A stretch of DNA of 63,020 nt, the filler included, from Dugesia japonica (lineage: Eukaryota), in NCBI GenBank assembly GCA_001938525.1. It is 6 parts of 6 records of this genome, joined end to end, with 100 filler letters (N's around TTAATTAATTAA, not from the genome) between each part and the next. Parts side by side here need not be neighbours in the genome. Positions count along the whole stretch, not along the records: positions 34,394 to 43,803 come from MQRL01636608.1; 5 more parts are not named here. One strand, 5' to 3'. The translations under genes were made by a program, and so were the position numbers. Within the stretch, counting starts at the first letter, position 1. The number at the start of each line of letters is the position of its first letter. The notes beneath the pieces were generated by a model that saw only the letters and a program-made list of their open reading frames with translations, made no database searches and was not told the origin of the DNA. Below are positions 38,266 through 42,789 of the stretch, piece by piece.

Positions 38266-41200
38266 TGTTGGGGTTTTACCTGAGTTGGATTAAAGAAAAC
38301 GTGGCTGGGGAAAAACAGCTCTCAGGAAACCCCTTCAAGAATTTAAATCCATTGCCCATTGGTTGGATAATCAGTGCAGAGCGGTTGACCTTCAACCTTT
38401 ACCGGAGGTTCACACTCGTACACCTTTAATTTGGGTTCATTAATTTCCCTTATAGACACAAAATTAGACAAGAGTTATCAAAACATCTTTAGCATTACAA
38501 CTTATATGTCTTCCAATACATCAGGATCTAACCACTGATTCGGGTCAGTCTCCCAAAAGTCAAATGCGGCTATGTCGTCATTGTCATCTCACTGTGTCCA
38601 CGCAGGATTTCCTATTTGGCTTGACAAGTCGGCTATGTATTGCTCTAAGAAATCTATCTTTCGTTGCAATATTTGTTTGTTTTGTGCTTCAAGAGCCATA
38701 GTTTGGGCAGCCAAATCACTCTGTTTTTTAACTATTACATCTAACTTCTTCATTAATCGGTTCCTCTGGGTGAGATGTCGTAGAAGGGTTTGTTCGGTCT
38801 TGCGCTTTAGATGGCGTTCTAATAATAAGCGACGCATAATCCGGTGACACCTTCGTAAACTTGTTGGGAATATAATTCGTGGCACTAAATAATTAAACAT
38901 TAACAGAAGGAAGAACTAATGAATAATCTCGTTATTGAATTTATCAAAATTTCCAAATTACAATGTGAAGACCAAAACTACTACATACAAAATTTTATTT
39001 GCAGGACAGAAGATTTATACACGAAGGGCGGGTTTCATCTGTGTGCCCTTATCAACCATGAGAGGTTCGAGGTATGATTTTTCCTTAAGATGCAGGATAT
39101 CTTTGACCAGTTTATTTTCACGGTCATGGCTGGACCGAATAATTTCGGCGAATGACTCCACCTGTGACTTACACACCCTTTCTTGATCGTGTGCAGCTTC
39201 CATCTCTTTGCGTACGTTATTACATTTATTTTTATACCGTTTCACTTTGGTGTTGGCCGCGGCTATTTCGGCTTCGAATCGACGTTTCGCCAGGCGATAT
39301 AATTCCCAGGACATTTCGGTGTCCTCGCTGGATTCTCTCATCTGTTTATTAGGGACTGATGAACTGTTTAATGATGAATGCACTATAACAACAACAACAA
39401 TAAAATTACAGATTCTAATTAAAACTGTTTATAGTCAAGAAAAAACAGAAGTAGAATAGAATCTTAATTAATCAACAATAAAAGACAGCAACAAATTCCT
39501 GGTTAAATTTTATTTCTAATAAGAAATATCAAGCCGACACCTCGGAGACTTCTTCACTAACGTTTTCATCATTATTACTGGACATACCGTTACGGGCATT
39601 CCATAAGTAATTTTGCACAAAGGAAGATAGTTGTGATGTTGAGGGTAAGCGATTCGTGGTGAGACCGATCAAAGATGGGCCATCGTGCCATACTCATTCA
39701 ACTTGGGGCACCTCGGTGGATCGCTCAAAAGAAAGTGGTGCCGGTGGGAAGGCAACTCTATCTCTCCTCGGGCCACACCAACTATAATAGGCTGCCCTCT
39801 CAGTTGCATCCCATTGTCGATCGGTTGCGCTTTGTTCAGTAGGAACATTAGAGCGATCTATTAACACACCGGCGTGGCGATCATAAGAATGTTGATACCA
39901 CCGGAACACGGTTCGGCCTGAACGGGTGTCAAGGCTCACTTCCCATTTATACTCCATGTGCAAAGGACCTAGATTAGAATTTATTATTGTTTTCATTGGA
40001 ATAGCAAAACAGAATTGTGACATGCAGCTCTTATTTTATATGACTAAACCCAAATAATAACACCAATTCGATTTATTTCGAGAGATTGATACTCAGTTAA
40101 AAACACATGTAACATTGCAATTAGTGATTGGTGGAAATTCCAACATTTACTCCTATAACAATGTCGGCCGATTCCAACCATAGTTCGCATTGTCACTCCT
40201 CATCCAAATCAACTCGATTCTGGCTCGGGAACATCTCGGCGAAACACTGGAGATCAGTTTCTTCGGGATGTTCGATTATACCGCGCTATAGGATGTGAGC
40301 CAACAACTGCCTTCTCCGAGATTTGCGCCTTTCAGACCGGATTAGTTTTAATATTTTAGTTAAACGATCGGTCATGCTGTTTGGTTATCTGATTAATAAA
40401 AACAAAATTCTTTTATTTAACCATGATGAAAAAATAAGAGCGTAAAAACATTTTGTATTCCATTTCTCATCAAATTAAAACATTCTCTGATATTTACCCT
40501 AAAACATTGGCAAGTTGAGTNNNNNNNNNNNNNNNNNNNNNNNNNNNNNNNNNNNNNNNNNNNNNNNNNNNNNNNNNNNNNNNNNNNNNNNNNNNNNNNN
40601 NNNNNNNNNNNNNNNNNNNNNNNNNNNNNNNNNNNNNNNNNNNNNNNNNAAAATATCTCTTTCCCAAAGAACGTAACACCTTTCTTTTTCAATTATTTTA
40701 ATTAACCAGTTATGAATGCAATATTTACGGAAACTATTAATAATCACTTGGTCAAAATCTGCTCGAGACTTGGTTATATTTTGTATAAACATCATCACGG
40801 TCCAAATTTATAGTATAATGGATATATACATTATTGCGTACTGTTGGAATTTCTATTAGATTTCATTTAGTAAATTTTTTGTATGATAATTTGTTATTAA
40901 TGATAGTGGTAATATTACTGGGTATAATGATAATAAAATTCTTAATGATCATAAACATCCCAATTAAATTAAATCGTTTAGTTTTATTTCCTTTTTTAAA
41001 ATTCTGCGTGATATCGTTGCCTAGGAACGTCAATTCTCTCTGTGTCAGGGTGTTAGTCTATAGTATGGGTGTATGGTAGGTATGTATAAGCAGAAAATCA
41101 AAATCCAACAACATGTGACTCAATTGTCACTCCGCTTACACACCTACTAGAGTCGTGACCTTTGATATCAATTTTAATGGAATTTATCAAATGCATTCTG

Positions 41201-42789
41201 AGAAAAGAAAATTATCAAACAGGCATTGATCTCCNNNNNNNNNNNNNNNNNNNNNNNNNNNNNNNNNNNNNNNNNNNNNNNNNNNNNNNNNNNNNNNNAC
41301 AAGAAGCATTTCTGTTATTTGAATGACAACAATTTTTGTGATTGAAGTACCTGGTTTTACCCATCGTTTCTACTGAAGTGAGTCACAAGTTAACAATTTT
41401 GTCTAAATAAATAATTGAAAATTCATTTTTCNNNNNNNNNNNNNNNNNNNNNNNNNNNNNNNNNNNNCAGATTTTCTGTCCTCAGACTTTTTATTAAACG
41501 TAATTTGTGCTTCACCATATTTATAAGTTAATATATACTTAATAAATAGTCTAATGGGTCTAATAAAAGGAAATATTTATCTAATAACGAAGGTATTTAC
41601 AGTGTTTTTATTTAATCAAGTTATCGCCAATTACTTGCTATAATTCCTATATTTAAATGTGAAATGATAACAATTAAGCATTTTGACATAGATTAATTTA
41701 TTAAATAATANTCAGAATTCTTAACAATACAACTTTTATCATAATAAAAAGAAAATTATACTTTACTTCTTGTTAGTGACGGGTGAATTTCTGCAACGGT
41801 TTTATCAACGGCTGGCTATCACTGAGCGTAGGATTTTGATTAAAATTATAGTTCTTGGTGACTATTCTTTCTTTCCTTAGAAATACAATTAATTCGAACT
41901 AAATCAATTACATGTTACTCGATGATACTCCGGTGAAATTGAGTTCCTTTGGTCAGATGACAACTAATGGAGAGTCAATCAGTGGTTTCTGATTTCTTTT
42001 TCTTGTTAATATGTCGGAGATAGATGTGCTTGTAATATTAATACTCTAAGTAGCAATTTCTCGTCCCTGAACAATTAATGATTGATTGAAAGTTTTGTTA
42101 TTCCTTTTTTTTGTTGTTGTTCCTCTGCTAAATTCAGGGGTCCTTCTATAGGATCTGACTTGCACCCAAACTTCTTCCAGATTTGCTGATTATTTTTAGA
42201 TCGGCCTTTTTCTGATTCTATTGGTTCCATCGTCAATTTTCTAAAAACTTCTACCAGACTTGGTGCCATGATTGGCAGCTATTTTTATCAGGACACCTGA
42301 CAATTGTGCCTTTGTTCTATTTTTATTTTTAGGTTTCTTATTGGACCAATCTTCGGGGCCCTACAGCAGCCTTCTTGATGGTGGTAAGTTTTTCGTTCTT
42401 AGCAATTTCAATGCATCCTGTTGTTCTCTGTTCTTATTTTCTTGTCCGGGTTCTTTCCGATTTCCGTGAGCGAAGTTATTCGGTTAAAACGGATTTTGTC
42501 TCAATTTTNNNNNNNNNNNNNNNNNNNNNNNNNNNNNNNNNNNNNNNNNNNNNNNNNNNNNNNNNNNNNNNNNNNNNNNNNNNNNNNNNNNNNNNNNNNN
42601 NNNNNNNNNNNNNNNNNNNNNNNNNNNNNNNNNNNNNNNNNNNNNNNNNNNNNNNNNNNNNNNNNNNNNNNNNNCCGATTCTTCTTTTTTGATCTTCCAT
42701 TTCCTCCCCGTAACATTATTTTTGTTTTGATGGTGAGTGTTTATTGACTCCTTTGGATTTTTCATTCCACTGGGTGTTTCACCCCAACA
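38266..42789. mobile_element. 4.5-kb element with TGTTGGGGT...ACCCCAACA termini and 4-bp TSD (giant solo LTR-like)
   Basis: 9-bp inverted termini with TG..CA ends; AAAT on both sides (38262-38265, 42790-42793); GC-richer than the flanks. No RT/IN/transposase motif is visible, and it contains N gaps. Confidence 0.65.
38502..40023 (-). CDS. Putative three-exon coiled-coil/bZIP-like gene within the 4.5-kb element (two in-frame TGA)
   Basis: Co-oriented ORFs 39694-40023, 39015-39383 and 38589-38900 are separated by AT-rich gaps ending in pyrimidine-rich AG acceptors. A TATAAAA precedes the ATG. Confidence 0.45.

Follow-up and report, generated by a model that had tools for sequence, protein, structure and literature searches.

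The TG..CA ends that Gypsy-type integrases leave are short and imperfect and come with a 4-bp duplication of the target, and the long terminal repeats (LTRs) of the giant Burro elements are near 5 kb in length. Burro is described as having an interior of up to 25 kb within an element of more than 30 kb, together with accessory open reading frames (ORFs), and it follows from these two sizes that its LTRs are multi-kb (PMC6431247). The end pattern TGTNR is common to Gypsy LTRs and to Ginger (PMC2836005). Here we describe a unit of about 4.5 kb, at positions 38266-42789, in a 63,020-nucleotide stretch of DNA from Dugesia japonica (assembly GCA_001938525.1), which we call the window. The unit sits within one 9.4-kb piece of the window, 34394-43803. 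We came to the conclusion that it is a real multi-copy insertion without enzymes and with likely coding cargo, and we believe, with a probability of roughly 0.55, that it is the solo LTR left by a giant, Burro-like Ty3/Gypsy element that bears accessory genes.

The left end, TGTTGGGGT, begins at 38266 and the right end, ACCCCAACA, finishes at 42789, which gives the unit its TG..CA termini. The perfect inverted repeat at the ends is 9 bp long (left copy 38266-38274, plus strand), and 22 of the 40 terminal bases match. AAAT stands on both flanks, at 38262-38265 and 42790-42793. The left copy closes a nearly pure A/T tract (flank 38211-38265, 2% G+C), and the right copy starts an A/T-rich tract (flank 42790-43400, 12% G+C). 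A preliminary description, made from the DNA letters, had proposed a TG...CA unit with 9-bp inverted termini and AAAT on both sides, and we find all of these at the coordinates given here. It had also cautioned that a 4-bp A/T-only match means little by itself, and we agree, as this duplication is A/T-only and lies within an A/T tract. The terminal motif is weak on its own: inverted repeats of 9 bp that start with TG and come with a 4-bp duplication form 8 pairs in the window, where 60 local shuffles average 2.0. The pair of this unit is the sole one in the window with at least 5 G+C, and 1 of the 60 shuffles reached such a pair; this G+C filter was picked post hoc, when the hit had already been seen.

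There is a second TGTTGGGGTTTTACC in the window at 54245-54335, matching the left end at 15 of 15 bases. It stands directly after an A/T tandem tract, its inner sequence differs, and it is cut by a join. It probably comes from a related family whose end and target preference are the same.

We aligned assembled contigs of runs X1, X3, X4 and X9 on 37300-43200, and those of X1 and X3 on 42690-42900; summed contig depths in these alignments are not copy numbers. At the left end the X1 depth steps up from 1,534 (38088-38284) to 27,552 (38285-38481), and at the right end it drops from 1,913 (42619-42815) to 87 (42816-43012). Between these steps, depth is 2,000-138,000 through 40451, 59-261 over 40452-42027 and 1,900-16,500 over 42028-42815, with 87-111 beyond. 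X3 and X4 repeat the pattern with steps at both ends. Run X9, from a second species (organism B), has related sequence with an equal depth pattern over the element, and the family is therefore likely to predate the species split or to be shared. Raw RNA runs were searched on 42690-42900 only, with 1 read in X17 and 0 in X20.

The right end (42757-42789, plus strand, finishing in the 9-bp inverted repeat) is the better resolved of the two. On 42690-42900 there are 369 contigs in X1 and 430 in X3; their depth is greatest at 42770-42793 and has fallen under 50 by 42826. At least 29 contigs in X1 and at least 31 in X3 continue past 42791-42808 into dissimilar AT-rich sequence, with an agreement of 0.49-0.75 (12 of the 69 loose-end rows are listed). 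Among those listed, some contigs depart inward at 42757-42758, so related subfamilies have the last ~30 bases in common. The right end is thus a true family terminus with many flanks. For the left end, the support is the depth step. The preliminary description had also suggested looking for an empty-site allele. A contig joint 38058->42790, found in X1, X3 and X4, arrives at the first base beyond the right end and may be an empty site. It hints at such an allele, but its short side has 22 letters, its middle is unresolved and it does not start at 38266.

Four N gaps of 129, 64, 36 and 166 bases (395 in total) lie inside the unit, and the preliminary description had named mis-scaffolding across them as a danger. 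Among the rows listed, an X4 contig runs across one gap and an X1 joint, whose short side has 27 letters, crosses another; for 40521-40649 and 42509-42674 no bridging contig is listed. An X3 contig over the right junction has just 14 letters inside the element, and we did not count it as a bridge. Three of the gaps are in the AT-rich, low-depth middle (40452-42027), which we take to be a subfamily-variable region. The whole could instead be two different repeats joined by nesting or by scaffolding over the gaps, with the inverted repeat and AAAT partly due to chance. The two unbridged gaps and the 8 motif pairs in the window are in line with this, and so is a middle with a depth 10- to 1000-fold below that of the ends. 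However, a G+C-rich pair is rare in the shuffles, both ends coincide with depth steps and all of the internal frames are on one strand. At several sites, 3-6 other contigs have letters unlike those of the middle, which is thus multi-copy as well. We consider such a joining very improbable.

Internal ORFs had been reported in the preliminary description, and we find four small frames (a-d) plus a broken fifth (e), all on the minus strand. G+C is 41-49% in frames a-d and 22-33% in the AT-rich spacers. Frame a (40193-40375) has 60 codons, a premature stop at 40288-40286, the motif H-x7-EH-x-EETD-xx-C-x3-M and an acceptor-like site at 40388. Frame b (39529-39957) has 142 codons, with a premature stop at 39696-39694 and an AATAAA 14 nt past its stop. 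Frame c (39015-39382) is open, with 108-121 codons, and holds the highest-depth bin of the element; it is coiled-coil-like, has an acceptor-like site at 39382 followed by an in-frame TG, and is followed by AATAAA 15 nt past its stop. Frame d (38502-38900) has 132 codons and a premature stop at 38591-38589, and it too has an acceptor-like site (38884) followed by an in-frame TG. Acceptor-like sites are therefore found ahead of a, c and d. The weakest of the five is frame e (42028-42508), a lysine-rich, high-depth frame with several stops and indels that enters the gap 42509-42674. Beyond frame d is a terminal non-coding block (38266-38498, minus strand), where depth is above that of the neighbouring bins. 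It has a TATA-like sequence at ~38452, ATTAAA at 38430 and a donor-like AG/GTAAAA at 38279, 13 bases inside the left end. Were the minus strand the one on which the LTR reads, the block would be a candidate promoter or R-U5. The donor-like site is preceded by G, not by the A needed for a split start codon of c or d.

The copy in the window is decayed and probably silent. At one position in each premature stop of a, b and d, nearly all other contigs carry another letter; the differing letter accounts for 1,004 of 1,016, 3,187 of 3,187 and 4,845 of 5,112 of the X1 depth at these sites. Among the listed sites within a-d where the majority differs, 3 of 12 fall in premature stops, for which the rough chance is 2e-5 (870 more rows exist beyond those listed). 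Because the other copies differ at the stops, the family likely keeps a-d open, and it likely codes in these frames.

We searched for homologues of b, c and d, in each case limited to proteins of similar length, and scanned a and e against Pfam and PHROGs only. Among 1.84 billion representatives, frame b has one distant homologue, P0003, with 49% identity over residues 1-73 (E 3.2e-15), which comes from a 512-base contig. A profile of b recovered P0003 alone among 170 candidates, and no relative of b was found in metagenome contigs. Neither c (1 candidate) nor d (4 candidates) gave a homologue. Seven of seven metagenome matches to the 19-base left end were rejected as chance, since just 19-23 bases match. 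The predicted fold of b is unusable, with a predicted local distance difference test score (pLDDT) of 40. For frame d the prediction is a single helix of 84 residues (13-96, mean pLDDT 87.9). It has a basic half, with 31% K/R in residues 13-47, and a heptad half in residues 48-97, and past the premature stop comes an acidic, aromatic 28-residue tail with 11 acidic residues. This predicted layout resembles that of a basic-zipper activator; it is a resemblance only. Frame c has weak coiled-coil matches, including some in PHROGs. Near its end (39033-39050, minus strand) it reads DKGTQM, which we take to resemble the binding motif of the dynein light chain (LC8).

No gag, pol or transposase domain was found in the internal frames scanned (395 bases of the unit being N), and this bears out the claim in the preliminary description that gag and pol are absent. 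Polinton / Maverick elements have polymerase B, integrase and capsid genes and end in long inverted repeats, and a set of compact cassettes, each with its own poly(A) signal, is reminiscent of the gene arrays of DNA viruses. A piece of a DNA virus or of a Polinton-like element that became integrated, with the small genes as viral accessory genes, would fit the second of these, and there is a Polinton polymerase remnant elsewhere in the window. However, the unit has no capsid, polymerase (polymerase B included), ATPase or integrase genes, it ends in fixed TG..CA and it has no notable tblastx match to the Polinton of the window. The element has no relatives in viral contigs or in BFVD, and its PHROGs matches are weak coiled-coil ones only. 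We therefore judge a viral origin very improbable.

What remains is the choice that the preliminary description had left between a solo LTR and a DNA element mobilized by an integrase. The solo LTR is the better fit. The TG..CA ends of the unit have an inverted repeat that is short and imperfect, its duplication is within the 4-6-bp range, its right end is fixed with differing flanks, and it has no gag, pol or env. A solo LTR would account for the ends, for the absence of enzymes and for a variable middle between common ends. A non-autonomous derivative of Ginger1 or Ginger2 with captured cargo would also fit the TGTNR ends and the 4-bp duplication, and non-autonomous copies exist (PMC2836005). 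The inverted repeat and the target speak against it: Ginger1 has inverted repeats of 40-270 bp and a CCGG/CCGT duplication, compared to 9 bp and AAAT here, and Ginger2/Tdd has inverted repeats of 50-180 bp and RTATAY, compared to 9 bp and AAAATT, a match at 3 of 6 positions (PMC2836005). For these reasons we prefer a solo LTR to Ginger, which seems a long shot.

If the unit is a solo LTR, a Gypsy-type integrase would have placed the complete element in an A/T tract, creating the duplication, and recombination between the two LTRs would then have deleted gag-env-pol. In the full element the frames could serve as alternative last exons: a common leader would be spliced to each of them, and a poly(A) signal close by would end the transcript. 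Frames c and d would possibly complete their start codon at the splice junction. Protein d may be a basic-zipper-like transactivator with an acidic tail, and the small genes are likely accessory regulators of the element. The frames might equally be sense (in U3) or antisense to gag-pol. A minus-strand LTR that has the genes in its U3 would agree with the TATA-like sequence at ~38452 and with the donor-like site near the left end. An antisense layout, as in the additional ORFs (aORFs) of plants and in human T-cell leukemia virus (HTLV), would avoid premature polyadenylation.

Several observations weigh against a solo LTR of a giant Gypsy element. Neither a primer-binding site nor a polypurine tract lies beside either end in the window, and neither junction appears in the 12 of 69 right-end loose-end rows listed. 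No paired copy of the unit was seen in these places either, and there is no second copy in the window. The flanks at the left end lack the detail resolved at the right. The joint 38058->42790 starts at 38058 and not at 38266, and it is absent in a narrower alignment at 88% likeness (38058 itself being outside that span). Should the frames be sense, internal poly(A) signals would impede a full-length RNA. The stops of a and d have their nearest hexamers at a long distance (115 and 68 nt), and such hexamers are common by chance, occurring in 14% of 26-nt spacer windows. Frame d has no bZIP (basic leucine zipper) match in Pfam (to E 1) or in the Protein Data Bank (PDB; to E 10), and Foldseek found no match for it in PDB or BFVD, which is expected for a single helix.

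Some of these points would be explained if the unit had never been an LTR, but a stand-alone, non-autonomous gene array of 4.5 kb, moved by a Gypsy-type integrase supplied in trans and with its promoter in the variable middle. The right-end flanks in the rows listed are all heterogeneous, a self-contained unit would be expected to have acceptor-like sites and poly(A) signals of its own, and the 15-bp copy of the left terminus at 54245 has a different inner sequence. The integrase-type DNA transposons described so far, however, have inverted repeats of 40-270 bp (PMC2836005), and with 12 of 69 rows listed a junction into the interior of an LTR element could be hidden. This origin seems doubtful to us; moreover, where its mobilization is concerned, we know of no enzyme partner for 9-bp ends. 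In its fullest form, it would be a mobile gene array without enzymes, with retrovirus-like ends, a borrowed Gypsy integrase and A/T-tract targeting. Its regulatory micro-genes, four or five in number and alternatively spliced, would be spread across an animal genome, and among them would be a basic-zipper-like transactivator. In that form it is more doubtful still. Taken together, the stand-alone origins (a new type or Ginger) are a minority possibility that deserves to be kept in mind. The two direct terminal repeats of a large retrotransposon derivative (LARD) or a terminal-repeat retrotransposon in miniature (TRIM) were not found in the unit, where internal direct repeats do not exceed 26 bp.

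If the solo LTR is what we have here, then an array of four or five accessory genes is kept inside a terminal repeat. Every recombination remnant would retain these genes, and the genome would hold many copies of possible regulators. Giant planarian elements would be closer to complex retroviruses, and the genes would be candidates for the tissue-specific activation that is reported for planarian Gypsy elements (PMC8532177).

The rest of the window has several features of its own. Spacers of 44 N, 12 bases and 44 N (TTAATTAATTAA at 54380) at 8516-8615, 25633-25732, 34294-34393, 43804-43903 and 54336-54435 resemble artificial scaffold joins. To the left of the unit, at ~35000-37850 on the minus strand, is a broken, ordinary Gypsy remnant (protease, reverse transcriptase, RNase H as well as integrase) of very high copy. 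We rejected the unit as a 5' LTR of the Gypsy gag-pol on its left, because there is no primer-binding site, ~400 unrelated bases lie between the two and the duplication is on both sides of the unit. Between remnant and element is a short repeat fragment with opposite GC skew (37883-38210). The idea that 37883-38170 is a polymerase B fragment was dropped; its BLASTP E to the window's own polymerase B is 1.7 and it has no Pfam match. The broken Polinton-type region is at 16014-20169 and has C2H2 zinc fingers, a weak Pox_TAP match and polymerase B fragments. Near-identical tandem duplicates at 16221-16838 and 30723-31338 flank short gaps and are likely assembly artefacts. A MITE-like (miniature inverted-repeat transposable element) sequence at 11023-11730 has 37 of 40 terminal bases inverted-identical and TATA on both flanks. 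A Tc1/mariner-type DDE_3 transposase fragment lies at 54392-54919, and an intronless frame of 1,568 codons at 56381-61087 (minus strand) codes for a diverged full-size ABC transporter. The window has no tRNA gene.

We found no description of genes inside planarian LTRs in the literature, a search that did not include the primary Burro paper and Repbase, which may record them. In Schmidtea mediterranea, six of six GAG-ENV-POL elements are without an annotated LTR, and the LTR distance limit of the method was 14 kb (PMC13524379 supplement 1). The 9-bp ends are absent from the seven supplements of that paper, and the excerpts of PMC11410931, PMC13309565, PMC13238120 and PMC8532177 have nothing on LTR structure.

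Compared with known systems, the unit is like Burro and GYPSM1 in that its size fits a multi-kb LTR, and in its AT-rich animal genome, its high copy number and the accessory ORFs of Burro. It differs in that the accessory ORF is in the internal region there, and section 7 of the review mentions no genes inside the LTR (PMC6431247). Ginger1 and Ginger2 share the TGTNR ends and the 4-bp duplication, but they have long inverted repeats of their own, specific targets and an integrase gene, and the unit is without all three (PMC2836005). The plant elements Grande, RIRE2, Retand and Ogre have family-wide small ORFs without database homologues that are proposed to be regulators, and Ogre LTRs are 1.9-6.5 kb (PMC7264820; PMC6431247). 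However, the plant aORFs belong to the interior of the element, for the most part to the stretch from pol to the 3' LTR, and a solo LTR would lose them (PMC7264820; PMC6431247).

The accessory genes of complex retroviruses are also small regulatory genes at an LTR, inside or close to the 3' one, expressed via splicing or an antisense promoter, and d has a basic-zipper-like layout. HBZ is a bZIP protein, and nef, the sag gene of mouse mammary tumor virus (MMTV) and the foamy virus bel genes are in U3. HTLV has an antisense promoter in its 3' LTR (PMC7264820). The difference is that there are one or two genes in those viruses, and here there are four or five cassettes, wholly between TG and CA and with no homology to the viral proteins. 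Finally, env in the Drosophila springer subclade provides a Gypsy-type precedent for a start codon that is split over a splice junction, with the difference that the split is AU/G for env there and a predicted A/UG for two small genes here (bioRxiv 10.1101/2023.08.03.551782).

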